In this document: piece by piece, positions 1-29,970 of the stretch
Layout of the letters: every line of letters starts with the position of its first letter
Position numbering within the stretch: the stretch's first letter is position 1
Assembly (NCBI GenBank): GCA_024278215.1
Contig: JAJRTR010000153.1
Coordinates: 1 to 45,200 of the forward strand
Direction: 5' to 3'
DNA length: 45,200 nucleotides
Source of the DNA: a bacterium
GTDB lineage: Bacteria > UBP15 > UBA6099 > JAJRTR01
Position numbers and translations under genes: made by a program
Notes under the pieces: generated by a model
What the model was told of the DNA's origin: nothing
Seen by the model: only the letters and a program-made list of their open reading frames with translations
Databases searched by the model: none

Positions 1-174
1 CAATTGCAAAATTATGTTCGTAGCGAGGTCGAGCTAAATTGTTCGGAGCAAGGCGGAGGTGTAAAATCCTCGCAGGCGTACTTGTAGAGTACGTCGAGGA
101 CGATTTTGTGCCGACAACGCAGCTATGGACAATAGCCGCCGACCTCAGCAGAATCAGAATTTTGCAATTGGCTC
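1..174 (+). mobile_element. MITE-like element copy 1 (first 4 nt of left TIR cut off by window edge)
   Basis: Highly similar to copies at 11435, 13650 and 39980. Begins inside the left TIR (CAATTGCAAAATT), ends AATTTTGCAATTGGCTC, and has the central GCGTACT-TGTAG-AGTACGT hairpin. Confidence 0.9.
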
Positions 175-250
175 CATATTAAATCGTTTCCTACCAGACA
201 CCTTTTTTCACTATAGAATTAACACTCAAGAAAACACAATGGTATAGAAC

Positions 251-1684
251 ATGACAATTCGATCAAAACTACTTTTGTCCATGTCGCTGACACTGTTTTT
301 TGTCTCACTCCTTGGATTTATTTACTATAAAAGTCTTGTGACCATGAAGCACAGACTTATGCTCATTGAGAGCATTGACGATCTGGGCGCCGACATCTCT
401 GATATGAGACGCGCGGAAAAAAACTATATGTTGTACCATGATCAGAACAGTTCTCAAAAGTGGATAATGCAGATTGATTTGATTTCCAGTGCTATTAAAG
501 AAAAGACCCCTGAGATGATAAAACTCGAAGGAAAGCAATATTGTATACAGCTCAAGCGCAGTTTCGATGCTTATGCCACCCTTGCACGCAAGCTTGTTTC
601 GACACGGGACACCAAAATCGACGAAGAAAAGATTCGCAGGAAAGGCCGCATGGTTTATGCCTCTTCTCGCAATATGATCAGGATGGAACGCAGGCAAATA
701 GATGTCATGGCGAGTTATATGTTCCGTGTTTTTCTTATTTCTATTTCGATTATGATTTTTACAGCGTTGGTGAGCATAATAATAATCGCGAGAGACATCA
801 TAAGGCCTCTGACCAGGATCGAGCGTGCGACACGCAAGGTTTCCGAGGGAAACTATGTTCCGCTGACAGGCGTTTACTTGAACGACGAGATCGGCAAACT
901 TGCAAAGGCGTTCAACTACATGATTCGCCAGATCGAGAAACATCAGGAAGAGTTGGTGCAGGCCGGCAAACTCGCATCGCTCGGCACACTGACTTCAGGC
1001 GTGGCCCACGAAATCAACAATCCCATAAACAACATCTCGATGATGGCTCAAGCCGGTGTTCAACTATATGATGATATGGATGATATGGAACGTATCGATC
1101 TGCTGTCGAAGATTGACAAGCAGTGCAAGCGCACGCGTGATATTGTTGATAATCTGCTGGATTTCTCTCGTGTGCGTCCGCGCACTTTCGAATCGACCCC
1201 TATAGATGAAGTAATCTACGAAAGCATCCAGCTTGTCAGCAATCAGCTTATCATCAATAACATAAAATACAATATCAATATAGAACCTGATCTGCCGGAA
1301 ATATTTATCAGTCGCAATCGCATCAAGCAGGTGTTGATAAATATATATACCAATGCTGTCAAGGCCATGCCCAACAGCGGCCAACTCGATGTGGAGGTGG
1401 CGCTTTCGCGCAATAAACGCTTCGTAAACATAACGATTACGGATTCGGGTGTCGGCATACCGCCTTCTGTACAGATGCACATATTCGATCCGTTCTTCAC
1501 CACAAGTGAGGTGGGGAAGGGCACAGGGCTTGGTCTCTCCGTCAGCTACAGCATTATCAAACGTCACGGGGGAACCATCACTGTGCGGAGCGAACAGGAT
1601 AAAGGCAGTACTTTCACAATATCGATCCCTATAAATAACAAGGAGACTAAAAATGGAAACGAAACCCAGGATTCTTGTAGTTGA
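251..1684 (+). CDS. Membrane sensor histidine kinase (2 TM, HAMP, HisKA, HATPase)
   Basis: HAMP DEIGKLAKAFN, H-box GVAHEINNP, N-box QVLINIYTNA, G1 DSGVGI, F-box IFDPFFTT, G2 GTGLGL. Confidence 0.95.
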   Translation: MTIRSKLLLSMSLTLFFVSLLGFIYYKSLVTMKHRLMLIESIDDLGADISDMRRAEKNYMLYHDQNSSQKWIMQIDLISSAIKEKTPEMIKLEGKQYCIQLKRSFDAYATLARKLVSTRDTKIDEEKIRRKGRMVYASSRNMIRMERRQIDVMASYMFRVFLISISIMIFTALVSIIIIARDIIRPLTRIERATRKVSEGNYVPLTGVYLNDEIGKLAKAFNYMIRQIEKHQEELVQAGKLASLGTLTSGVAHEINNPINNISMMAQAGVQLYDDMDDMERIDLLSKIDKQCKRTRDIVDNLLDFSRVRPRTFESTPIDEVIYESIQLVSNQLIINNIKYNINIEPDLPEIFISRNRIKQVLINIYTNAVKAMPNSGQLDVEVALSRNKRFVNITITDSGVGIPPSVQMHIFDPFFTTSEVGKGTGLGLSVSYSIIKRHGGTITVRSEQDKGSTFTISIPINNKETKNGNETQDSCS

Positions 1685-2024
1685 TGATGAGGAAGTTGTC
1701 TGCGTAATGACAAAACGTATCCTTGAGCACGATGGTTTCGACGTCACCGTGTTTATGGATTCCACCCGTGCGCTGGCCGCTCTCGAACAGGAACAATTCG
1801 ATGTGTTAATTACCGACCTGAAAATGAAAGATGTTGACGGTATGCAACTGTTGGATTTCACAAATAAAAAATGGCCCGAGACAAAAGTCATTGTTCTGAC
1901 TGCTTTCGCAACCACAGAAGTCGCCGCAGAAGTTTTCGACAAGAAGGCTTTCGATTATTTTACCAAACCCGTTCGAATAAGCGATCTTCAAGCATCTGTC
2001 AAGCGTGCTCTTGAACATAAATAG
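1653..2024 (+). CDS. Single-domain response regulator (receiver)
   Basis: ILVVDDE, ITDLKM (phospho-Asp), LTAF, KP. Overlaps the kinase 3' end; AGGAG RBS upstream. Confidence 0.93.
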   Translation: METKPRILVVDDEEVVCVMTKRILEHDGFDVTVFMDSTRALAALEQEQFDVLITDLKMKDVDGMQLLDFTNKKWPETKVIVLTAFATTEVAAEVFDKKAFDYFTKPVRISDLQASVKRALEHK

Positions 2025-2416
2025 ATATGAAAGTATCCCCTGATGACCGAAGAAAATGAACGAGCAAATGGAAATGACGAAAATGGGAACCTTCCCCGAA
2101 TCGCCCGTACTCTTATGAATTCTCATATGAGGAAAACAGGCTGACATCCACCCTTATTGAATCTGCGAAAAAACGCACCGAATATGCAGGAAACAGAAAG
2201 CGCCTGCTTCCACCGCTTACGATGCGACAAGAGCATTATCATAAATATTTCACCAGTGTGGGTTAACTAATAAGGCGTGATAACTGGTGTGTTTAATATC
2301 TATATAATAGAATGTATATACTGCTCCTGGCGATGGATATCATAGAATGGAAATATCCAAACGATTCACACGCTGGAGAAAGAGAAAAAAAGAAAGTGTA
2401 AGCTCCAGATAACTGC

Positions 2417-4222
2417 ATGGAAGAATATTCCGACAGAAATAAGAGGCCGCTGATTTCCATTCGCGCAAAGCTGATGGCCGCATTCGTTGTTGGAATATTG
2501 ATACCTGTGTGCGCGATGCTTTACCTGATGTCAATGAGGCTGCCGGAGAGATACGACAGGCTGGCGGAGCTTCGTGTTCGCAGCGCGCTCGACGGGATCA
2601 GCTCGGATTTCGATTCGCTGATGAACGACACCCGCGAACGTGTGAAATCAATTGCAAACGACGACAACGTGGTCGAGGAAGTCGCGTCGATTTCGCTGAA
2701 GGGATCACCCTACGGAGCAAGCTGGTTCACAAAACGCATACGCACACTGAAGGATGCGACCGGGCTCGATATGCTGAAAGTGATAAACAGAAAGAAAACG
2801 CTTATCGCCGACGCGGTGAATCCGGAGAAGTTCAATGTATCATATAAAAACGATCCCTATGTGGCGGAAGTTCTGAAAAACGGTGTCACCAGAACATTTG
2901 CAAGGACGGAGAAGGTGGGAGGGAAAAACAGCGTTGTAATAATGGTCTATCAGCCTGTGTGGTATCAGGGCGCGCCTGTGGCGGTATTGATCGGCGGCAG
3001 AAAGATCGGGCGTGATTATTTAAACAGGCTGCATCGGCTGAGCAGCGCGAGGGTTGTTCTTTATGTCGACTACAAACCACTGATAGATTCAAACAGCAGC
3101 GAAACATCGGCGGGGTTGCCGATCGACAAAAGTTTTCTCGAAGACCTCGATCGGAAGCCGGGCCTGATAAGGAAGGTGGGCAGCGGAGACGCTGATTTCA
3201 TGGTGGGCGGCGTGCCGCTGACGGAATCGCAGACTGGCGAACTGCTTGGTTTTTTCGTAATGGGGGTGAGCAGGGATCAAGTAAAAAACATCATGAGACA
3301 GACACGAGCCGATATCGTGCTGGTCGCGCTGGTCGGCATCGGCATATCGCTTTTTCTCGCCGTAATCATTTCAATAGGGATAACGCGACCTATCTCCCGG
3401 CTTGTGCAATTTGCAAGGAGTATCGGGCGCGGCGATTTCTCGAACAAGAATATATCCGCGACATCACGCGACGAAATAGGGCTTCTCGCGGAGACAATGA
3501 ATCGTATGGCTAAAGACCTGTCGGACTACAGCGAAAAGCTGGCCTACAGTGAACGGATGGCGGCGTGGAGCGACATAGCTCGACGCATGGCGCACGAGAT
3601 TAAGAACCCGCTTTCTCCTATTCAACTGTCGGTCGAAAACCTTCGCGCGAGCTTCGATGAAGACCGGGCCGCGTTCGACAGGCTTTTCCCCGAGAGCGCG
3701 GAGACGGTTCTCGAGGAAGTCGAAAAGCTGCGTAAGCTGGCGAACGAATTTTCGGAGTTCGCGCGGTTGCCCGCACCTGTTTTTGAAGATGTCGAAGCAG
3801 GCGAGTTGCTTCGCAATCTTGTAGCTTTTCATGCAGGTATTACTCCGGAAAACGTAAATATAGAATATAATATCGAGGAAACGCCTCTGAAAGTACGTGC
3901 GGACCGTGACCAGTTGAATCGCATATTCACCAACCTCATTAAGAACGGTATCGAGGCGATGGGTGAGGGCGGCACACTGCATGTTTCCTCTTATGCTGAA
4001 AATGGTTACGTTAAATTTATATTCAGAGATGAAGGGAAAGGAATCGCGGAGGAAGACCTTGAAAAGATTTTCATGCCGTATCACACTACAAAGGTGCGCG
4101 GTACGGGGCTCGGGCTTGCGATTGTAAAAAGAATCGTCCAGGATCACGGCGCAGGCATGACGGTGAGCAGCGAACCCGGCAGGGGCGCGACGTTCGAACT
4201 GGACTTCAGGCAGGTCGATTAA
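2417..4222 (+). CDS. NtrY-like sensor histidine kinase (Cache-like extracytoplasmic domain, HAMP, HisKA, HATPase)
   Basis: AAWSDIARRMAHEIKNPLSPI is an NtrY-type H-box; HAMP DEIGLLAETMN; GTGLGLAIV. Confidence 0.92.
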   Translation: MEEYSDRNKRPLISIRAKLMAAFVVGILIPVCAMLYLMSMRLPERYDRLAELRVRSALDGISSDFDSLMNDTRERVKSIANDDNVVEEVASISLKGSPYGASWFTKRIRTLKDATGLDMLKVINRKKTLIADAVNPEKFNVSYKNDPYVAEVLKNGVTRTFARTEKVGGKNSVVIMVYQPVWYQGAPVAVLIGGRKIGRDYLNRLHRLSSARVVLYVDYKPLIDSNSSETSAGLPIDKSFLEDLDRKPGLIRKVGSGDADFMVGGVPLTESQTGELLGFFVMGVSRDQVKNIMRQTRADIVLVALVGIGISLFLAVIISIGITRPISRLVQFARSIGRGDFSNKNISATSRDEIGLLAETMNRMAKDLSDYSEKLAYSERMAAWSDIARRMAHEIKNPLSPIQLSVENLRASFDEDRAAFDRLFPESAETVLEEVEKLRKLANEFSEFARLPAPVFEDVEAGELLRNLVAFHAGITPENVNIEYNIEETPLKVRADRDQLNRIFTNLIKNGIEAMGEGGTLHVSSYAENGYVKFIFRDEGKGIAEEDLEKIFMPYHTTKVRGTGLGLAIVKRIVQDHGAGMTVSSEPGRGATFELDFRQVD

Positions 4223-4240
4223 CATGCGGAGGCTGTTTGT

Positions 4241-5605
4241 ATGAGTGAAGCAGGTATACTTATTGTGGATGACGAAAAAAATATCCTTTCCGCAATGTCC
4301 GCAACACTCGAGTCTGCCGGTTACTCCGTGGGCACGAGTTCCAACGGCAAGGATGCTCTCGAAAAGATAGTCGGCAACAGATATGACGCCGTGCTGCTGG
4401 ACATACAGATGCCGGGCATGGACGGAATGGAAGTGCTGAAACGCGCGCGCGAGAAGCGGCCCGAACTCATAGCGATCATAATGAGCGGCCACGGCACGAT
4501 CAGTACGGCGGTGAAGGCGACGAAGCTGGGCGCTTATGATTTCATAGAAAAGCCTGTGTCGCGCGACAAGCTGTTGCTGACGATCAGGCGCGCGCTGGAC
4601 TTCCGGCGCCTCGAAGACGAAAACACCGAACTGCGCAGCCAGATAGCACATAAGTTTGACATCGTCGGGCAGAGCCCGAAAATAAAACAGTTGCTGAATA
4701 GGATCGAGACGGTCGGCGCGTCGCCCAGCAGGGTAATGATACGCGGCGAAAACGGTGTCGGCAAAGAACTCGTCGCCCGCGCTATCCACCAGGCCGGCGC
4801 GAGGGCCGACAAGCCGTTTATAAAAGTAAATTGCGCCGCGATCCCCAACGAATTGATAGAAAGCGAACTTTTCGGACATGAAAAAGGCGCATTCACAGGC
4901 GCCACCACTATGAGGCGCGGTAAGTTCGAGCTCGCGCACAGAGGCACTATCTTTCTCGACGAAATCGGCGACATGCACCTCGAAACACAGGCCAAGGTGC
5001 TGCGCGTGCTACAGGAAAATGAACTCCAGAAAGTCGGCGGCGACGAGCTGATAAAAGTCGATGTCCGCGTCATTACAGCAACAAACAAGGACCTCGAAGC
5101 AGAGATCAGAAATAATAATTTCAGGGAAGACCTCTTTTTTCGCCTGAACGTGATCCCCATCGAGGTGCCGCCTCTGCGGGAGCGCAAGGAAGACATACCA
5201 CTTCTTGCGCGTCACTTCTTCAAGAACTTCACAGACGAATACGGACGCACAAAAAAGCAGTGGACGGAAGATGCTTTCGACGCGCTTGTCGAGTATCCCT
5301 GGCCCGGAAATGTCAGGGAGCTACAGAACCTTACGGAACGTGTTTATATCATGTCTGAAACAGACGTTATCGACGCGGAGACAGTGAGGTCGTTTCTGCC
5401 GAAACATGCTCCGGACGGCACCGCGCTCGAGGATATAGACCCTGACAGGCCACTCAAGGAAGCGGTCCTCGCTTTCGAAAAAAAATATATAGAAAAGAAA
5501 TTGAAGGAAAGAAACTACAGGATAAGCGAGGCTGCGAGATCGCTGCAACTCGAACGCAGCCATCTCTACAAAAAAATTAAAGCACATGGAATAAATGTTC
5601 CTTGA
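4241..5605 (+). CDS. Sigma54-dependent response regulator, NtrX/NtrC family (REC-AAA+-HTH)
   Basis: Receiver domain, Walker A GENGVGKE, GAFTGA loop, FLDEIG, WPGNVREL, C-terminal HTH ERSHLYKK. Directly downstream of the NtrY-like kinase. Confidence 0.95.
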   Translation: MSEAGILIVDDEKNILSAMSATLESAGYSVGTSSNGKDALEKIVGNRYDAVLLDIQMPGMDGMEVLKRAREKRPELIAIIMSGHGTISTAVKATKLGAYDFIEKPVSRDKLLLTIRRALDFRRLEDENTELRSQIAHKFDIVGQSPKIKQLLNRIETVGASPSRVMIRGENGVGKELVARAIHQAGARADKPFIKVNCAAIPNELIESELFGHEKGAFTGATTMRRGKFELAHRGTIFLDEIGDMHLETQAKVLRVLQENELQKVGGDELIKVDVRVITATNKDLEAEIRNNNFREDLFFRLNVIPIEVPPLRERKEDIPLLARHFFKNFTDEYGRTKKQWTEDAFDALVEYPWPGNVRELQNLTERVYIMSETDVIDAETVRSFLPKHAPDGTALEDIDPDRPLKEAVLAFEKKYIEKKLKERNYRISEAARSLQLERSHLYKKIKAHGINVP

Positions 5606-21856: not shown

Positions 21857-24081
21857 TAACAGGACAATTTTTGGTTTTAGCAGTATTCGCTCTGTGCATT
21901 GCCGTGTTCGGCGCGTACTTGATGTCGATCGGCAACGGTGAAAAAAGCGGATGGAAAACAGCGGGGCGGGCCGGTACATGGCTGATGTTTATCCTGTGCG
22001 GACTCGCGCTTGCCAATCTCCTCGTGCTTTTTCTCAACGACAGGTTTTTCGTCAAATACGTTTATGAAAACAGTTCGACCACAATGCCCGTGCTCTATAA
22101 GATTTCCGCGGTGTGGGCCGGTCAGGACGGCACATTCCTGCTCTGGCTTTTTTTCCTGACACTGACGAGCGTGTTGATGCTCCGTTCCCGCGTTGACAAC
22201 GAAAGCCGTGTGATGCTGTTCATGAAGGCGCTGGAACTGGTGATGTGTGTTCTGCTGATCCAGAAATCACCATTCATGCTGCTCGGCGGCGGTGCGACAC
22301 CGGCGGAAGGCTCCGGCATGAATCCATTGCTGATGAACCCCTGGATGGCGATCCACCCACCGGTGGTTTTCCTCGGCTTCGCGCTCACCGCGGCACCTTT
22401 CGTGATATTTTTGGGTTCGGTGTCCAAGGGCGATGCAACAGGCTGGACACGAAAAGCGAGGCCCTGGGCTATCGCCGCCCTTAGCATACTGGGCGCGGGC
22501 ATATTCCTCGGCTGCTACTGGTCATACGAAGTGCTGGGCTGGGGCGGCTACTGGGCGTGGGATCCCGTCGAGAACGCTTCTCTATTCCCCTGGATTGCGT
22601 TATGCGCACTTATTCACGGCATGATTCTGCAAACCTATCGCCGCAACTATGCTTTCTGGAACGGCGTCATGGTCACCATTGCTTACGTAATGGTCATCTT
22701 CAGCACATTCCTGACACGCAGCGGCATACTCGCCGATTTCTCTCTCCACTCATTCTCCGGTCTCGAACTCTATTACCCGCTTCTCACGGCTCTTGCAGGC
22801 ACGGCCCTGCTCGGTATCGTGATGCTTGTGAGGCAACTCGGGCTGGCGGTTGATCTGTCCGGCGAGACCAGGGGCAACCCGATGAAGCCGCTGCTCCTGA
22901 CATGGTCGATATACTTTTTCTGGATATTCTTCCTCTTTGTTTTCATCGGAACGACGTACCCGATTTTCGCAAAGATCATGGGCGCACAGCCTTCACCGGT
23001 ACAGGGCGGCTACTACAACAACACATCGGTCGTCGCGGGGATACCGATCGCGCTGCTCCTGACGGTTTGCCCAATATTATTCGGTCGTCGATCAGGCAAA
23101 GGCCTGCCGTGGTCGATGATCGCGCTATCAGTCGCGGGTGGCTGCGTCGCGGCATATTTGACGTATATCACTAAAACAGTGCATCCGGCGGTTGTGGCTC
23201 TTGCGTTTGTCGCGGCATCCGCCACAGTTGCAAATACATGGTGTTTCTTCAGCCACATACTCGCGCGTCGTATGCGGTTTACCAGCTATCTGTCACACAT
23301 CGGTGCGGCGGCGCTCATCGCTGGTTTCGTCCTTTCTTCAGTGGCATCACGGCAGGACAGGATTGTGCTGACACGCGGCGAGACAACGTCGGCATTCGGC
23401 TACAATGTTACACTTTCCGGCCTGAGTCCGACGGACACAGGCGCTCTGGCTGAATTCACAATTGAAAAAAATAAAAAATCATTCAAAGAAAATCTTGATT
23501 TCGTAAAGGATTCCATGCACAGAGTAAAACTTAATGTTCCTGCAATTCACCACAGCGCCTCCGGAGACGTATATCTATCGCCTGTGCAGATAATGCTGCT
23601 CGACTCGCAGGCAAGCGACGGCAGCGGCGAAAGCGTCATGATCGAACGCGGCAACACTTATGAAACAAAGAGCGGGCTTGAGATCACTTTCGTGAAATTC
23701 GATCTGGCGAGGATGCAGGAAATGGGCGTTGTAGGAATTGTGCTCGCGGTAAAGTTTGAAGACAGCGAACAACAGATAGTCATCGACTACGGCCCCGGTG
23801 CCGCCGAACCGGAAAAACAAAAGGTGCGTCTGCAAATAGCGCCTTTCGAGATAAGCGTGTCTTCAATAGAAGCGGCATCGGCGCGTGTGCGGCTCGAAGT
23901 GAGAAACACGAATGCAGAGACGAAACCGGAGAAAGAAAAACAGAAACAGGATGTCGCGGTAATGTTCCAGTTCAGCGTGAAGCCCTATATAGGACTGGTA
24001 TGGATGGGTATGCTGCTGCTGACCGGCGGTTCGTTGCTTGCAGTGTGGCGAAGAAGTCCGGCTGGAAAAACAAAAAACTGA
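21853..24081 (+). CDS. ccmF: Cytochrome c synthase CcmF
   Basis: WAGQDG, GMNPLL, IHPP, WSYEVLGWGGYWAWDPVENAS, TFLTRSG, SLHSF, HIG, KPYIGLVW. Confidence 0.95.
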   Translation: MITGQFLVLAVFALCIAVFGAYLMSIGNGEKSGWKTAGRAGTWLMFILCGLALANLLVLFLNDRFFVKYVYENSSTTMPVLYKISAVWAGQDGTFLLWLFFLTLTSVLMLRSRVDNESRVMLFMKALELVMCVLLIQKSPFMLLGGGATPAEGSGMNPLLMNPWMAIHPPVVFLGFALTAAPFVIFLGSVSKGDATGWTRKARPWAIAALSILGAGIFLGCYWSYEVLGWGGYWAWDPVENASLFPWIALCALIHGMILQTYRRNYAFWNGVMVTIAYVMVIFSTFLTRSGILADFSLHSFSGLELYYPLLTALAGTALLGIVMLVRQLGLAVDLSGETRGNPMKPLLLTWSIYFFWIFFLFVFIGTTYPIFAKIMGAQPSPVQGGYYNNTSVVAGIPIALLLTVCPILFGRRSGKGLPWSMIALSVAGGCVAAYLTYITKTVHPAVVALAFVAASATVANTWCFFSHILARRMRFTSYLSHIGAAALIAGFVLSSVASRQDRIVLTRGETTSAFGYNVTLSGLSPTDTGALAEFTIEKNKKSFKENLDFVKDSMHRVKLNVPAIHHSASGDVYLSPVQIMLLDSQASDGSGESVMIERGNTYETKSGLEITFVKFDLARMQEMGVVGIVLAVKFEDSEQQIVIDYGPGAAEPEKQKVRLQIAPFEISVSSIEAASARVRLEVRNTNAETKPEKEKQKQDVAVMFQFSVKPYIGLVWMGMLLLTGGSLLAVWRRSPAGKTKN

Positions 24082-24106
24082 AGACGGCGGATGTTTATTT
24101 AATGCG

Positions 24107-24781
24107 ATGACTGAAGAAATAAAAGAGACAAGAAAAAAACTGATCGGAGACTTGCACAGGCTCCGGCCTTACATGAGAAGTGAGTACAGGGCAATGCTCG
24201 GCGATGCCGGCATACCCGAGATGGACGAAAAATTATATCGCGAAAAAGTATTCGACTTCGAGCGCGCCCCCCATGTCGAAAAAAATGGCATAGAAAAAGC
24301 AATCGATATTATCGGAGCGGTAAGCGCGGATGTCTTTCCGAACACTACAATATATCTCTTTACATGCCTTCAGAGAACCGAAGCGTTTCACTATGAACTG
24401 CTCAGACCCGAGAACGAACCCGGCAAAGATGAAAGCCGGTCGCTTATGTTTAAACTCGGTTTAAGAAAAACAATACGGAAGACAGCCGCCATGTTGCCTG
24501 AAAGCGCCCTGAATATATGGAGATGCAGACGGCAGCTGCTGGATGTTCTGGAGAACGAACTATGGCGCATCGAACTCGATATCGGAGAGACCGCCGAAGC
24601 TGAAAAAGTGACTAAACTGCGTATGCTCGCCGACACTCTCCATGCAATAACACCCGCGCAGCTTTCCATTTTTGAATCCGACTCCGACTTGAAGGAATCA
24701 TTCGTAAGGGAAAACGGCGAACCGGCGAAAAAACTCTTGCTTTTCGTGGCGGACAAGAACATATCCCATGCGGCGGATTGA
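24107..24781 (+). CDS. Hypothetical protein (soluble, helical)
   Basis: Long ORF filling the gap after ccmF; no recognised motif; start uncertain. Confidence 0.6.
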   Translation: MTEEIKETRKKLIGDLHRLRPYMRSEYRAMLGDAGIPEMDEKLYREKVFDFERAPHVEKNGIEKAIDIIGAVSADVFPNTTIYLFTCLQRTEAFHYELLRPENEPGKDESRSLMFKLGLRKTIRKTAAMLPESALNIWRCRRQLLDVLENELWRIELDIGETAEAEKVTKLRMLADTLHAITPAQLSIFESDSDLKESFVRENGEPAKKLLLFVADKNISHAAD

Positions 24782-25190: not shown

Positions 25191-25457
25191 GTTCGTAAAG
25201 GTTCTGGTTTGCATTTCTCCACCAGAGAGAAGGTTTCAAAATAGTGCCTTTTTTATCTTCACATCAAGTTGATCCCACATATTTATCATGAAACTTTTTA
25301 TTTTTTCTGTACATACATAACCCTATTCATACTATAATGAACAATAATGAACCTGTGCGTTTCTGAACATCGGTTCTTCTTGTGAAAACATTGCAGGTTA
25401 GCCGAAAGGTGGATGTTTTTCGCATATACAAGTGGTGTAAACAGGCGGTGTGCGACT

Positions 25458-25814
25458 ATGAAAAAGATACTCATCGTTGACGATAAGGAAAGCATTAGAA
25501 CCCTGATTGAAGATGAGTTGGAGGATGAGGGATACGAAGTCCTGTCGGAATCCAGCGGCAAAGAGGCGCTCGCCACACTCGATAATATCGAATATCAAGT
25601 CGACCTCGTTATGCTCGATATAAAAATGCCGGGTATGAACGGACTGGAAGTTCTTAATGAGATAAAAAAGAAAAATAAGAACCTGCCTGTAATACTGCTT
25701 TCGGCCTACCACACATACAAACAGGACTTCTCGTCATGGGCCGCCGACGACTACATTGTCAAATCCACAGATTTTGCAGAACTGAAATCCAAGATAGAAA
25801 ACCTTATCGGTTGA
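25458..25814 (+). CDS. Single-domain response regulator
   Basis: MKKILIVDD, MLDIKMPGMNG, LSAY, YIVKS. Confidence 0.92.
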   Translation: MKKILIVDDKESIRTLIEDELEDEGYEVLSESSGKEALATLDNIEYQVDLVMLDIKMPGMNGLEVLNEIKKKNKNLPVILLSAYHTYKQDFSSWAADDYIVKSTDFAELKSKIENLIG

Positions 25815-25836: not shown

Positions 25837-26574
25837 CTATTGCAGCTTACCTTGGCGGCGGGCTGTTTCGAAGATGGTCGCCGCAGCCGCGACGGATATG
25901 TTTAATGATGGAAAATCCGGATTCGTGGGAATCCGCAACAGAAAGTCGGACTCGTCTTTTGTCAGCCTCGACAAACCTTCCCCCTCGCTGCCGAACACAA
26001 GAACGAGCGGCATGGCGAGGTCGTGAGTGTAGCAGTTTTCTTTCGCCCTTTCGTCCGTGCCGGCAATCCAGCAGCCCCAGTCTTTCAGCTTTCGCAATGC
26101 CTGCCGCAAGTTTGCAACTCGAGCTATCGGCACAATATCCGCGCCGCCGCATGACGTCTCATAAACCGTCTCAGTAACTTCGCAACATCGTTTTTTTTCA
26201 ATAATAAAACCATCGGCGCTCACGGCGGCTGCCGTGCGTATAATCGCGCCGAGATTCCGGGGGTCCTGAATATGATCGACCGCGATAACGAGCGCACCGT
26301 CGCCGCTGTTACGTACGTTTTCGCCTATCAGCTCGATGTCCACATATTCAAATGGTTCGCAGTGCGCTTCGATGTCGGCTGTGCGTCTGCCCCTGCCGCC
26401 GCGACCACGCGGCGAGTCGGGAGGCGCCTTGTGAATCACAATGTTTCCGCCTCGCGCTATCGACAGCAGTTCGTTGATTTTTTTATCTGAAACATATTTG
26501 GGATTGACAGTCAGCGACTTGACTCTTCCCGCCCTCATCGCTTCATATATGGAATTCTTATCTCTTATTATCAT
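25837..26574 (-). CDS. rlmB: 23S rRNA 2'-O-methyltransferase, RlmB/TrmH family
   Basis: DHIQDPRNLGAIIRT, VFGSEGEG, SLNISVA. Confidence 0.9.
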   Translation of the reverse strand: MIIRDKNSIYEAMRAGRVKSLTVNPKYVSDKKINELLSIARGGNIVIHKAPPDSPRGRGGRGRRTADIEAHCEPFEYVDIELIGENVRNSGDGALVIAVDHIQDPRNLGAIIRTAAAVSADGFIIEKKRCCEVTETVYETSCGGADIVPIARVANLRQALRKLKDWGCWIAGTDERAKENCYTHDLAMPLVLVFGSEGEGLSRLTKDESDFLLRIPTNPDFPSLNISVAAAATIFETARRQGKLQ

Positions 26575-27061
26575 CTTTTCTTATCAGGCTTGCAACGCAT
26601 CGGGCCGAGATGCCCTCGCCCCTGCCTTCGGGTCCGAGTCCTTCGGGCGATTTCGCCCTGACCCCCACTCTGTCCGGCTTGATTCGCAATGCGTTCGCCA
26701 AATTTTCCTTTATACTATTTATGTACGGTGCCAATCGTGGCTCCTGCGCGACTACTACGGAGTCGATGTTGTTGACCGAAAAACATTTTTCTTCAATCAT
26801 GCCTGCGACACTGCCGAGAAGTATCATGCTGTCGATGTCCTTATATTCGGGATTATCCGCAGGAAAAAGTGTGCCGATGTCGGGCAGGCCGGCGGCGCCA
26901 AGGAGCGCGTCGCAAACTGCGTGCACGAGCGCGTCCGCGTCCGAATGGCCTTGCAGTCCGTAAGCGAACGGTATCTCGACGCCGCCCAGTTTCAGAGGCC
27001 CCGGCGCTGCAAGCGGATGCACATCCCAGCCGATCCCAACCCTGAACAGATCGTCAGACAT
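26558..27061 (-). CDS. ispF: 2-C-methyl-D-erythritol 2,4-cyclodiphosphate synthase
   Basis: RVGIGWDVH, GHSDAD, DALLGAAG, DIGTLFP, NID, GRGEGI. Confidence 0.96.
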   Translation of the reverse strand: MSDDLFRVGIGWDVHPLAAPGPLKLGGVEIPFAYGLQGHSDADALVHAVCDALLGAAGLPDIGTLFPADNPEYKDIDSMILLGSVAGMIEEKCFSVNNIDSVVVAQEPRLAPYINSIKENLANALRIKPDRVGVRAKSPEGLGPEGRGEGISARCVASLIRKDDNKR

Positions 27062-28157
27062 CTTCTCTGTCCTGATCATTATCGTTGTTCGTGGGAGAGT
27101 CCTGAATGATAGTAGCGAAGATCAGCCGCCCGGCGACAGACTGCATGATGTTTTTGATCTCGACCTCGAGTGTCTCGCCGATCTTTTTGTCGCCGTGTTC
27201 GATAACCACCATCGTGCCGTCGTCAAGGTAGGCGATCCCCTGCCCGTGTTCCTTGCCGTATTTTACGACATTGACTACCATGGTTTCGCCCGGCAACAGG
27301 CTACGGCGCAGGCTGCCTGCAAGCGTGTTGAGATTGTAGACCCGCACTCCCCTGAGTTCGGCGATTTTCGAGAGGTTGAAATCGTTTGTCACGAGCACGG
27401 CGGCAATGGATTTGCTGTAGTTCACGAGCCGGGCGTCAACAGCAGTCGCTTCGCCCGCGCGCGGCGCAGGCATATCTATGACTTCAAGTTCGATGTCTTC
27501 TCTTTCCTTGATTTTTGTGATAACGTCCAGTCCTCTGCGACCGCGCTTGCGGCGCAATCCGTCCGAGTCGTCTGCGATTCCCTGCAACTCGTTAAGTACA
27601 ATATCGGGAACAAAAAGCTTGCCCTCGATGAAATTATTTTCAAGCAGTCCCAGTATCCTGCCGTCGATCAGAACACTTGTGTCGAGCACTTTTGGCTTCG
27701 CCGCGTCGATACGATAGGCCGTCGTGCTGACAATGTTGCCGCCCCATAGCGAAACCCGGCTGAAGATCAGAACTCCAAGATAGCCGAAAATAATACTGGC
27801 GAGAATGGTCAGTCCCAGATTCAGTGTCCTCATGTCACCGGCAAACAGCCACAACGGCAATGTCACGAGAATTGCGAAAAGGAATCCCATCAGGAGACCG
27901 ATAAAACCTGACGCCAGCGCATGAGGAGAAAACCGCTGCAGCGATCTCATTATCTGCTTATGCAACATCAGCAGCCAGCGCTCGGTATACGGGGCTATCA
28001 GTAATCCGAATAAAAAACCTGCGCTGACAAATCCCGCGTTGTTATATAACTCGGACTGGTAATCCGTCAGGTATGCGCGGTTGAACATATCGGACAGGCG
28101 GTAGAACAACAACATTCCACCGGATATGCAGATTATGCGGACTAATAACGCAAACAT
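27054..28157 (-). CDS. Membrane-anchored PIN/TRAM domain protein (YacL-like)
   Basis: N-terminal TMs, LDTSVLIDGRI, RGRRGLD, TNDFNL, TRAM QGIAYLDDGTMVVIE; upstream of ispF. Confidence 0.93.
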   Translation of the reverse strand: MFALLVRIICISGGMLLFYRLSDMFNRAYLTDYQSELYNNAGFVSAGFLFGLLIAPYTERWLLMLHKQIMRSLQRFSPHALASGFIGLLMGFLFAILVTLPLWLFAGDMRTLNLGLTILASIIFGYLGVLIFSRVSLWGGNIVSTTAYRIDAAKPKVLDTSVLIDGRILGLLENNFIEGKLFVPDIVLNELQGIADDSDGLRRKRGRRGLDVITKIKEREDIELEVIDMPAPRAGEATAVDARLVNYSKSIAAVLVTNDFNLSKIAELRGVRVYNLNTLAGSLRRSLLPGETMVVNVVKYGKEHGQGIAYLDDGTMVVIEHGDKKIGETLEVEIKNIMQSVAGRLIFATIIQDSPTNNDNDQDREDV

Positions 28158-28307: not shown

Positions 28308-28316
28308 TGGTATAAT
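28308..28316 (+). promoter_or_regulatory. Extended -10 promoter element upstream of the mcsA-mcsB fusion
   Basis: TGGTATAAT (TGnTATAAT) about 30 nt before the start; no clear -35. Confidence 0.5.
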
Positions 28317-28344
28317 TCACATATCAGGCAGGGCGTTTCGGGAG

Positions 28345-29970
28345 ATGAATATGAAGTGCAGCAAGTGTCATGAAAACAATGCCGCGTATTATATATCGCA
28401 CCAGTCGTCAGGCGGCGCGTCGATTGGATTCTGCGATACATGCGCGGAAGAGATCGGTATTTTCTCGGTGCTCAGGCGTGTCGAGTCGCTTATGCACGGC
28501 TACGGAATGAAGACCGATGGATTGAGCGTGCTGCAACAATCAGATTTCCCCATCGATTTCGCCGAAGAGTGTAAAACTTGCGGAACGGAACTGCGCGAGT
28601 TCGAGCGGCGCTTCTATTTCGGGTGCGAAGAGTGCGGCATCGTGTTCGGATCGTTAATCAGCAATTACCTGACGCTGCTCGGTGGAAACACGAAAGACGT
28701 GTCTTCAGTTTATCACGGCACACCGCCTCTGAGCTATCGTGAAAAAATCGATATTCATACTGCCGAAAAAAAATTGAACGAAAAGATCGACGCTGAAAAC
28801 TACACAGCCGCTGAAGCAGGAAAAGCAAGGCTCGAAAAGCTCGAAGAAAAAAGAGCGCGCCGCCTGTGTCGCGCTTCCTCCTATGTTAAAAAAGGTAAAA
28901 CCAGAATCCCCGAAGCAGGGAAAAGCGAAAGAAACCGGATATTGCAGAAATCAGGCGTTTTTGCCCGTGGAGACCGCAACTGGCTGATGTCTTCCATAGA
29001 AATCAGGAGAAATTTCAGCGATTACAAGTTCCCCACAAAAAGTGACGGGGCAATGAAGGAATTTGTACGCCGATACGCATCCGGATTGCTGACTGAAAAA
29101 TATGCAAGAGGCCTTAAAACTATCTTATGGGACGAATGTGCGCCCGCGGAAAGAAACGCGCTCCAGACAAGCCTGATCGGCCGCAGACTCTTTCCACAAT
29201 CAAGTATTCTCACAGATTCAACGATGAACCGGGTTGTACTGCTTAATAATATGGACCATATAACCGTTCTTTCGAGAACCGGCGAACAGGACGCGGGAAC
29301 TGCCGTCGCGCAGGCGCTCGAACCTCTCAAAGGCATCGAACGCAAAGCAGACATCGCTTTTTCCAGCAGGTTCGGATATGTCACGGCTGTTCCGAAATAT
29401 CTCGGCACCGGTCTTTCGGCTTCCGTCCTATTGCATCTTCCCTACAGTCTTTTCAAAGGCCGCACATATTCTATTCCAAGTCTCTGTGCCGCAAAATCCA
29501 TCAAATGTGAACCACTCGTAGGCAACAACTTTGATCAGCACGGCTTTTTCAAAATTTCAAGCACAGTGGGTTTCAGCCGTAGCGAAGAAGATATCGTCGC
29601 CGAAGTTTTCGACTTCGCGGCAGGCCTTATAGATGAGGAAAGTATCATCAGGGCCGAACTCAAACCGAGCGAGACCCGGCGCATCGCAAACTCAATGAAG
29701 AAAGTTCTTTATCACGCCACACGCTCCTACCGTCTGTCATATTCCGACGCGCTTAGTTTCACTACTTTTCTCCATCTCGGGCTTGAGAATGATGTAGCGG
29801 ATATACCGGGTTTCCGCCTCGACGACGTTATCCCCTGTCTTTCTTCCGCATTCATTATGTACCGCGACGGCGGCAGGCGATACACCGTCAATATCTGCGA
29901 AAAGAGACGCGCCGACCTCTATGCCGACCTTGTCGAATCCTGGCAGCAGCCGGCAATAACCGGTGTTTGA
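28345..29970 (+). CDS. McsA-McsB fusion protein with degenerate arginine-kinase active site
   Basis: Four CxxC motifs (CSKC, CDTC, CKTC, CEEC) and a UVR-like helix as in McsA, then an ATP:guanido phosphotransferase-like region (RRNFSDYKFP, NNMDH, GYVTAVPKYLGTGLSASVLLHLP, SEEDIV) and an McsB-like C-terminal domain. Confidence 0.85.
   Translation: MNMKCSKCHENNAAYYISHQSSGGASIGFCDTCAEEIGIFSVLRRVESLMHGYGMKTDGLSVLQQSDFPIDFAEECKTCGTELREFERRFYFGCEECGIVFGSLISNYLTLLGGNTKDVSSVYHGTPPLSYREKIDIHTAEKKLNEKIDAENYTAAEAGKARLEKLEEKRARRLCRASSYVKKGKTRIPEAGKSERNRILQKSGVFARGDRNWLMSSIEIRRNFSDYKFPTKSDGAMKEFVRRYASGLLTEKYARGLKTILWDECAPAERNALQTSLIGRRLFPQSSILTDSTMNRVVLLNNMDHITVLSRTGEQDAGTAVAQALEPLKGIERKADIAFSSRFGYVTAVPKYLGTGLSASVLLHLPYSLFKGRTYSIPSLCAAKSIKCEPLVGNNFDQHGFFKISSTVGFSRSEEDIVAEVFDFAAGLIDEESIIRAELKPSETRRIANSMKKVLYHATRSYRLSYSDALSFTTFLHLGLENDVADIPGFRLDDVIPCLSSAFIMYRDGGRRYTVNICEKRRADLYADLVESWQQPAITGV

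Follow-up and report, generated by a model that had tools for sequence, protein, structure and literature searches.

The stretch of DNA analysed here, 45,200 nucleotides of contig JAJRTR010000153.1 (assembly GCA_024278215.1; hereafter the window) from a bacterium of the GTDB phylum UBP15, carries a gene that encodes counterparts of both McsA and McsB, which make up the McsA/McsB holoenzyme of Bacillota, in a single open reading frame (ORF). Its McsB-like half has a kinase fold in which the catalytic residues are replaced. The gene and the parts of its product are the following.

28345..29970 (stop codon included), plus strand: fused McsA-McsB-like ORF of 541 amino acids, frame open, likely true start at the ATG at 28351
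28351..28494, plus strand: residues 3-50, Z1, a first zinc-ribbon-like module (C5, C8, C30, C33) that aligns to Bacillus subtilis McsA, PDB chain 8wtb_B
28549..28728, plus strand: residues 69-128, Z2 and L3, a second predicted zinc site (C76, C79, C94, C97) with a Y.G.PP loop
28729..28974, plus strand: residues 129-210, helical hairpin equivalent to the McsA coiled coil, with a basic linker; the helices are those of the structural model
28975..29655, plus strand: residues 211-437, McsB-type domain of phosphagen-kinase fold, its catalytic set replaced, as defined by Pfam PF00217 and residue mapping
29656..29949, plus strand: residues 438-535, McsB-type C-terminal dimerisation domain with an altered receptor pocket for phospho-arginine (pArg); the fold match covers the domain

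A GGGAG stretch at positions 28340-28344 abuts the first ATG (28345) and MKC is the N-terminus of the homologues, so that the second ATG, at 28351, is the likelier start of translation.

The N-terminal half has the McsA-like features listed in a preliminary description of this DNA, namely four CxxC pairs, at residues 5, 30, 76 and 94, and the sequence YHGTPP at residues 123-128. The NCBIfam McsA model NF053706 matches residues 3-170 (E 1.7e-11) with a score of 44.2 bits, below its curated cut-off of 210, and the McsA chain 8wtb_B is matched with E 1.4e-5. All eight cysteines (C5/C8/C30/C33 and C76/C79/C94/C97) are invariant in the 16 informative rows of the family alignment, to which all family statistics below refer, and C76/C79/C94/C97 align with C81/C84/C99/C102 of McsA; zinc binding is thus predicted at two four-cysteine sites, the second followed by the L3 loop, as in McsA. 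According to the structural study of the complex (PMC11046695), the McsA segment that binds the kinase domain of McsB is Z2-L3, and residues 69-128 of the fused protein are its counterpart. The UVR-like segment that had also been proposed was not confirmed by the domain search, in which the Pfam UVR model had no match at E <= 1; what the AlphaFold model contains is a helical hairpin (residues 129-182) formed by helices 129-149 and 153-182.

The second half of the protein is McsB-like in its fold and degenerate in its catalytic motifs. Pfam PF00217 matches residues 286-433 with E 3.1e-20 and 72.9 bits against a cut-off of 22.4, which places the domain in the ATP:guanido phosphotransferase fold, and B. 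subtilis McsB in PDB (8wtb_A) is matched with E 2.1e-17. The NCBIfam McsB model NF002194 gives E 2.1e-27 but 96.1 bits against an equivalog cut-off of 385, and NF053707 gives 76.8 bits against an equivalog cut-off of 500. The motifs read exactly as they had been written down before: SSIEIRRN at residues 216-223, NNMDHIT at 301-307, TAVPKYLGTGLS at 347-358 and EPLVGNN at 389-395. Residues were mapped through a HMMER alignment to 8wtb_A, in which chain numbers exceed native numbers by 2, as checked on C167, Q160/R161 and S166 (PMC11046695). In this mapping R29, R31, E121, R125, C167, R176, R207 and E212 of B. subtilis McsB are replaced in the window protein by S217, E219, M303, T307, V349, S358, E389 and N394, respectively, and N119, D122, H123, R34 and N35 of McsB are retained. 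The same holds family-wide: R125, C167, R176, R207 and E212 are each found in none of the 16 rows, R31 is a glutamate in all 16, E121 is retained in three rows and R29 in six.

By motif register the mapped positions correspond to Arg124/126, Glu225, Arg229, Cys271, Arg280, Arg309 and Glu314 of arginine kinase, in which Glu225, Glu314 and Cys271 hold the guanidinium and Arg126/229/309 the phosphoryl group, as stated in PMC11075012. The roles of the McsB residues rest on this homology, together with PMC11046695 and PMC8370763. Both the residue mapping and the 16 family rows bear out the earlier suggestion that the catalytic residues are gone: the glutamate pair and the cysteine that position the guanidinium in McsB (E121, E212 and C167) and the phosphate-binding arginines (R29, R31, R125, R176 and R207) are replaced. 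To judge from these residues, the protein very probably has no arginine kinase activity. A glutamate at the position of E121 occurs in P0012, which reads NEEDH, and the L012 gene (genome G001), and in P0015 / L020 (genome G004). These proteins lack C167, R125, R176, R207 and E212 despite this glutamate; since a few members keep it without the other catalytic residues, the motifs were lost piecemeal.

The dimerisation domain of McsB contains a pArg receptor site made up of S285, R337, D338 and R341, according to PMC8370763. When this pocket was mapped via a canonical McsB, S285 was found to correspond to S465 (conserved in 14 of 16 rows) and R341 to R522 (16 of 16); R337 is replaced by C518 and D338 by E519, each of them in all 16 rows. 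In addition, R463 and N516 are invariant, family-specific additions to this domain. A comparison of the dimerisation domain alone with PDB sequences gave no McsB match.

A word-indexed search found 11 other proteins of the family, with 36-76% identity and nearly all about 520-550 residues long; one of the homologues, P0005, is labelled Victivallales. In an exhaustive search of 1.84 billion representatives only eight proteins fell below E 1e-30, the next matches being ordinary McsBs with identities of about 25%. The phylum to which GTDB assigns the window consists of 13 species genomes, all of one order (the genome of the window itself and 12 relatives), and ten of the 13 have exactly one PF00217 match. 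In each of these ten the gene is a single intact ORF of 525-558 amino acids with the zinc ribbon first. The single-chain fusion proposed in the preliminary description is therefore not a sequencing slip, and it is fixed in the lineage. Two further genomes, G007 (80% complete) and G010 (67% complete), have no PF00217 match and are too incomplete to judge.

The ratio of nonsynonymous to synonymous substitution rates (dN/dS, Nei-Gojobori) lies between 0.077 and 0.143 for the three pairs whose dS is below 0.2 and equals 0.12 for a pair of 67% identity, whose dS of 2.2 is near saturation; the remaining pairs are saturated or nearly so and uninformative. Neutral decay, which the dN/dS check proposed earlier might have revealed, is not seen, and the fused gene is maintained by selection. 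It is the only McsB homologue found in the lineage, kept under purifying selection. The loss of catalytic residues from a gene that is yet under such selection is the mark of a pseudoenzyme, inactivity being read from the residues.

A tree was computed by quick search from 73 rows of the kinase and dimerisation domains, with branch support from the Shimodaira-Hasegawa-like approximate likelihood-ratio test (SH-aLRT) only. The family forms a single branch in this tree (SH-aLRT 100, stem 1.21). Seven single-ORF McsA-McsB proteins outside the family (P0019, P0030, P0063, P0070, P0072, P0086 and P0122) are scattered singly among the unfused McsBs, that is, seven changes for seven rows. All six catalytic residues checked are intact in five of them, P0019 has serine in place of Cys167 and P0070 is without three of the arginines. 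Some of these outside proteins could be gene-calling or assembly joins.

With P0063 as bait, the best 80 of 556 confirmed relatives' loci were inspected, 77 of which have a recognisable McsB ORF with NEEDH intact. No fused McsA-McsB was found in these 77 loci, which come from Bacillota (28), Verrucomicrobiota (27), Omnitrophota (8), Planctomycetota (7), Gemmatimonadota (3), Fibrobacterota (2), Zixibacteria (1) and an unnamed phylum (1). The assumption that mcsA and mcsB are normally separate genes thus agrees with this sample; separate genes are the rule well beyond Gram-positives, and a stable fusion is rare. The present family is the only one seen here with the fusion fixed across a lineage. 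Eight unfused McsB-like proteins of about 350 residues without the canonical residues (P0021, P0037, P0039, P0042, P0055, P0073, P0081 and P0085) form a separate clade with SH-aLRT 99, and therefore degenerate McsBs arise more than once. One of the eight, P0021, and the family member P0010 are listed with the same source and with a longest contig of identical length (4905 bases), so that they may be neighbours on one contig.

The distribution of constraint along the protein was compared as mean pairwise identity within the family (120 pairs) and among the seven outside single-ORF proteins (21 pairs).

Z1: 0.55 in the family, 0.29 outside
Z2-L3: 0.56 in the family, 0.33 outside
hairpin and linker: 0.21 in the family, 0.19 outside
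kinase domain: 0.39 in the family, 0.40 outside
dimerisation domain: 0.46 in the family, 0.32 outside

Within the family, conservation is higher in the zinc modules and dimerisation domain than in the kinase domain; outside it, the kinase domain is the part best kept. Invariant columns make up 14 of 60 in Z2-L3 and 0 of 82 in the hairpin and linker, the least conserved part of the protein. In the kinase domain 18 positions are invariant, most of them located in the loops that contact McsA and in the four motifs of the old active site.

The structure was predicted by AlphaFold2 from a 74-row alignment, one row of which is a mis-cut partial sequence. The model has a mean predicted local distance difference test score (pLDDT) of 90.7 and a predicted template modelling score (pTM) of 0.85, with low confidence only at residues 20-22 and 52-60. 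Its top match in Foldseek is McsB 6fh1_A, with a template modelling (TM) score of 0.86 on the target. VIA-align superposes model residues 199-536 on McsB 6fh1_B with Z 33.6 and a root-mean-square deviation of 2.2 Å over 331 residues; since the superposition spans this whole region, both the kinase and the dimerisation domains are McsB-like. Whole arginine and creatine kinases are superposed with Z 22-24 and about 290 aligned residues (model residues from about 38 to 436). Because the kinase domain has only 226 residues, at least about 60 of the aligned residues come from the McsA part, which in the model would thus sit at the position of the phosphagen-kinase N-domain. The same place is occupied by Z2-L3 of McsA in the solved McsA-McsB complex, and McsA is contacted there by F41, P42 and R161 of McsB, according to PMC11046695. 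These three residues correspond to F229, P230 and R342 of the fused protein and are invariant in the family. The docking geometry of the McsA part is a prediction, and so would be any salt bridges in the old ATP site.

The fused protein may thus be compared with several known systems. With the McsA/McsB holoenzyme of Bacillota (B. subtilis, G. stearothermophilus and S. aureus; PDB 8WTB, 8GQD, 6FH1 and 6TV6) it shares the order of Z1, Z2, L3, coiled coil, kinase domain and dimerisation domain, both predicted zinc sites, the McsB fold (Z 33.6) and the F41/P42/R161 contacts. It differs from that holoenzyme in being one polypeptide instead of two, in the replacement of the catalytic glutamate pair, cysteine and phosphate-binding arginines, in the cysteine found at the pArg receptor position R337 in 16 of 16 rows, and in its setting, with no CtsR found and clpC unlinked in the window genome. 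With the phosphagen kinases (arginine and creatine kinase; PDB 1P50, 1BG0 and 9B0U) the model shares the superposition of both domains, by which the fusion would restore the covalent layout of N-domain and kinase domain. Unlike in these enzymes, however, the N-domain is a putatively zinc-binding McsA module, Z1, the hairpin and the dimerisation domain are extra, and Glu225, Glu314, Cys271 and Arg229/280/309 have no counterpart.

Two further groups each share one of the two properties of the family. The outside single-ORF proteins (502-535 residues) likewise carry four CxxC ahead of a full McsB in a single ORF, but they mostly keep the catalytic set and are scattered on the tree; the degenerate unfused clade has likewise lost the catalytic set in an otherwise full-length McsB, but it is unfused and stands on a separate branch. 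In the literature on McsB pseudokinases, fusions and phylogenetic distribution (supplements aside) we found no dead or fused McsB described, and one pseudokinase review names McsB in its reference list only. The claim that the variant is undescribed can thus be kept in a narrower form: the parts are all known, fusion and degeneration each occur separately elsewhere, and the new point is their combination, fixed across a lineage without an active McsB.

As to the rest of the pathway, a second McsB-like gene was found neither in the genome of the window (95% complete; searches with PF00217 and with protein P0018) nor in the 12 relatives of the phylum. The inhibition of a canonical McsB, one of the functions suggested in the preliminary description, is therefore rejected for these 13 genomes; the two other suggestions, ClpC adaptor and metal/redox sensor, are plausible candidates. 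CtsR was not found in the genome of the window either. The same genome has no obvious YwlE: its two low-molecular-weight (LMW) phosphatase matches both carry CTGNSCRSQMAE, which we take to be the signature of arsenate reductases and not that of YwlE. One LMW-phosphatase/ArsC-like match lies in an open frame of 587 amino acids (locus L055, G000:C58, about 4446-4829, minus strand), in which an ArsC-like part may be fused to another domain.

ClpC, on the other hand, is encoded by all 13 genomes. The ClpC of the window genome is encoded on contig C112, has two Clp_N repeats and a UVR motif, and retains in its N-domain the two glutamates characteristic of the pArg pockets of Bacillus ClpC. These glutamates also occur in ClpCs of organisms that lack McsB, so that their retention decides nothing. 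A complex prediction for the fused protein and the ClpC N-domain yielded no answer, scoring 0.00 where the mark is 0.32, and speaks neither for nor against binding.

In genome G003 (locus L029, G003:C491) the fused gene is followed, after 268 bp, by clpC in the same orientation. The order of genes at this locus is a receiver-domain gene (1-339, minus strand), the fused gene (713-2320, plus strand) and clpC (2588-5053, plus strand); the latter encodes a protein of 821 amino acids that is 74% identical to ClpC of the window genome. In the other nine gene-bearing genomes clpC is on another contig than the fused gene; as had been observed before, no clpC adjoins the gene in the window, none lies anywhere in the window, and the clpC of this genome is on a different contig. 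By a rough estimate (a few thousand genes, about six independent contexts) the chance of one such adjacency is well under 1%, and we read the linkage in G003 as a trace of an ancestral mcsAB-clpC linkage. A function as ClpC adaptor would be supported by this linkage in one of the ten genomes together with the universal presence of ClpC in the phylum. Upstream of the fused gene and of clpC no shared operator was seen by eye, only -10-like elements, no formal motif search having been made. The window also contains a single-domain receiver gene (25413-25814), 2.5 kb upstream of the fused gene; the receivers of the window and of G003 are only 26% identical, with a weak REC match.

Two features of the window lie immediately upstream of the fused gene.

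28308-28316, plus strand: TGGTATAAT, extended -10-like element, 29 bases upstream of the first ATG, by consensus match only
27054-28157, minus strand: divergent neighbour encoding a PIN + TRAM (YacL-like) protein by Pfam, context only

The element TGGTATAAT is the sole TGnTATAAT on the plus strand across the 45.2-kb window, and a -10-like element apparently precedes the fused gene in all ten gene-bearing genomes, as judged by eye; a two-hexamer promoter scan did not list TGGTATAAT. Thus, of the promoter of its own that had been attributed to the gene, the presence and uniqueness of the element on this strand stand, and a consensus match is no proof of a promoter. The head-to-head position with a yacL-like gene is as described, and the Pfam matches place the PIN+TRAM (YacL-like), IspF and SpoU methylase genes in a row at 25837-28157 of the window, minus strand. 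This order presumably resembles that downstream of the clpC operon in B. subtilis. Around the fused genes of the relatives, where flanks longer than about 2.5 kb on both sides exist in only four of nine genomes, no counterpart of YacL, IspF or SIS was found in the 12 loci searched; since it is not common to the relatives, the yacL-like neighbourhood carries little functional weight. Farther upstream in the window, an ORF of 247 amino acids (24038-24781, plus strand) directly follows a CcmF-like gene and has no Pfam family at E <= 0.001.

Conserved neighbours were considered as a functional clue and rejected, as 12 of the 13 shared gene families (the fused gene itself excluded) each occur within a single group of related genomes, either the three of genus g10 or G005 with G008. 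The neighbour shared across the groups is a GNAT gene, which occurs in g10 and G008 in differing orientations. In genus g10 (L028, G012:C153, 4443-8361; L021 and L022) the fused gene overlaps a MobA-like NTP-transferase gene by 4 bases, and a gene for 314 amino acids without Pfam family and a GNAT acetyltransferase gene come next; in G008 a related GNAT gene adjoins the fused gene in convergent orientation. Finally, in G006 (L024, G006:C34, 6464-8332, plus strand) a 622-residue protein with about seven double-zinc-ribbon repeats is encoded directly upstream of the fused gene.

We incline, with slightly better than even confidence, to the interpretation that the gene encodes a conserved, non-catalytic single-chain McsA-McsB, a pseudokinase probably tied to ClpC or stress sensing. 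Such a protein would work through binding; its most constrained parts, which are the zinc modules and dimerisation domain, would do this work, and the kinase fold would serve as a rigid platform for them. Sensing could be the task of the zinc-cysteine sites and of the invariant Cys518. The role might be one in ClpC-linked quality control or stress sensing, as that of the McsAB adaptor in Bacillus; the ancestry of the system and the one linkage to clpC point to this as the most likely setting, for which we would nevertheless give a little less than even chances.

Several observations weigh against this interpretation. The adaptor function of McsB in Bacillus reportedly needs kinase activity, a finding attributed to Kirstein et al. 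(2007), so that an inactive McsB would need a different mode of engaging ClpC. The adjacency to clpC is seen in only one of the ten gene-bearing genomes, and clpC has its own -10-like element there. G002 (94% complete), the only examined genome of the same GTDB family, is without the fused gene; this looks more like a real loss than incompleteness, and the gene may thus be dispensable. Moreover, NEEDH is kept in three family members, the old active-site motifs hold most of the invariant residues of the kinase domain (R221, R222, N223, H305, P350, G354, G393, H399, G400 and F401), and family-specific charged residues are among the conserved ones: E219, R221 and H399 in 16 of 16 rows each, and K/R351 and E/D389 in 15 of 16 each. 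A new binding or catalytic site would give the same pattern of conservation.

That the protein has been repurposed in this way, its remodelled cleft and altered dimerisation-domain pocket forming a novel site that binds or converts something other than ATP and protein arginine, seems to us unlikely. The charged residues just listed do lie at the old active site, H364 (16 of 16) aligns with a histidine kept in 48 of 50 unfused McsBs, and the former pArg pocket combines the invariant C518, E519 and R522 with the family-specific R463 and N516; however, the kinase domain is overall less conserved than the zinc modules, two former phosphate-binding arginines are now acidic, so that salt bridges could simply fill an empty pocket, and the gene context, which varies between genera, suggests no ligand. 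It is a rather improbable further idea that such a site belongs to a rebuilt sensor-adaptor, in which the old ATP site and the Cys518 pocket would read a small-molecule or redox signal and, together with the eight zinc-bound cysteines, convey it to ClpC proteolysis. A residual protein-arginine kinase working through unconventional residues is very improbable: the protein does retain the fold, the glycine-rich loop (G354, G356) and the NxxDH core (N301, D304, H305), and E121 is kept in three rows and R29 in six, but five of the catalytic residues are lost from every row and R31 is a glutamate throughout, the scores are far under the NCBIfam equivalog cut-offs, no CtsR was found, and neither LMW-phosphatase match has what we presume to be a YwlE-like signature.

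We also doubt that the protein is a stress regulator independent of ClpC, such as a zinc/thiol switch that targets transcription or some other partner and replaces McsAB signalling in a lineage without CtsR. The zinc modules are indeed the most conserved parts, CtsR was not found, the neighbours vary with clpC usually elsewhere, and the gene apparently has its own -10-like element in all ten genomes by eye. Yet the Pfam and NCBIfam matches include no DNA-binding domain, there is no conserved partner gene, and the one informative linkage is to clpC itself. Only the loss of catalytic residues would suggest that the gene is a pseudogene in decay or that two genes were joined artificially in assembly or sequencing; the probability of this is negligible, since the single intact ORFs in ten of ten gene-bearing genomes and 11 further database proteins, the low dN/dS (0.08-0.14) and the confident whole-chain model rule it out.

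No writer of the phospho-arginine degradation mark other than McsAB is known to us, and McsAB has been studied almost only in Bacillota. The lineage described here keeps a McsA-McsB-shaped machine, as one chain, and discards its chemistry, which argues for a conserved non-catalytic function of McsAB, such as that of a scaffold, an adaptor or a zinc/thiol sensor, that can persist when the kinase is lost; the kinase may thus be dispensable. If the sensor-adaptor idea were true, the protein would be a one-protein stress sensor that replaces arginine phosphorylation in a phylum without an arginine kinase. Being a single chain with fixed 1:1 stoichiometry and no need for co-expression, the fused protein could separate the binding role of McsAB from catalysis, and it could show the full-length McsA-McsB arrangement. 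Together with the unfused degenerate McsBs, it suggests that catalysis has been lost repeatedly in the evolution of the McsB family.

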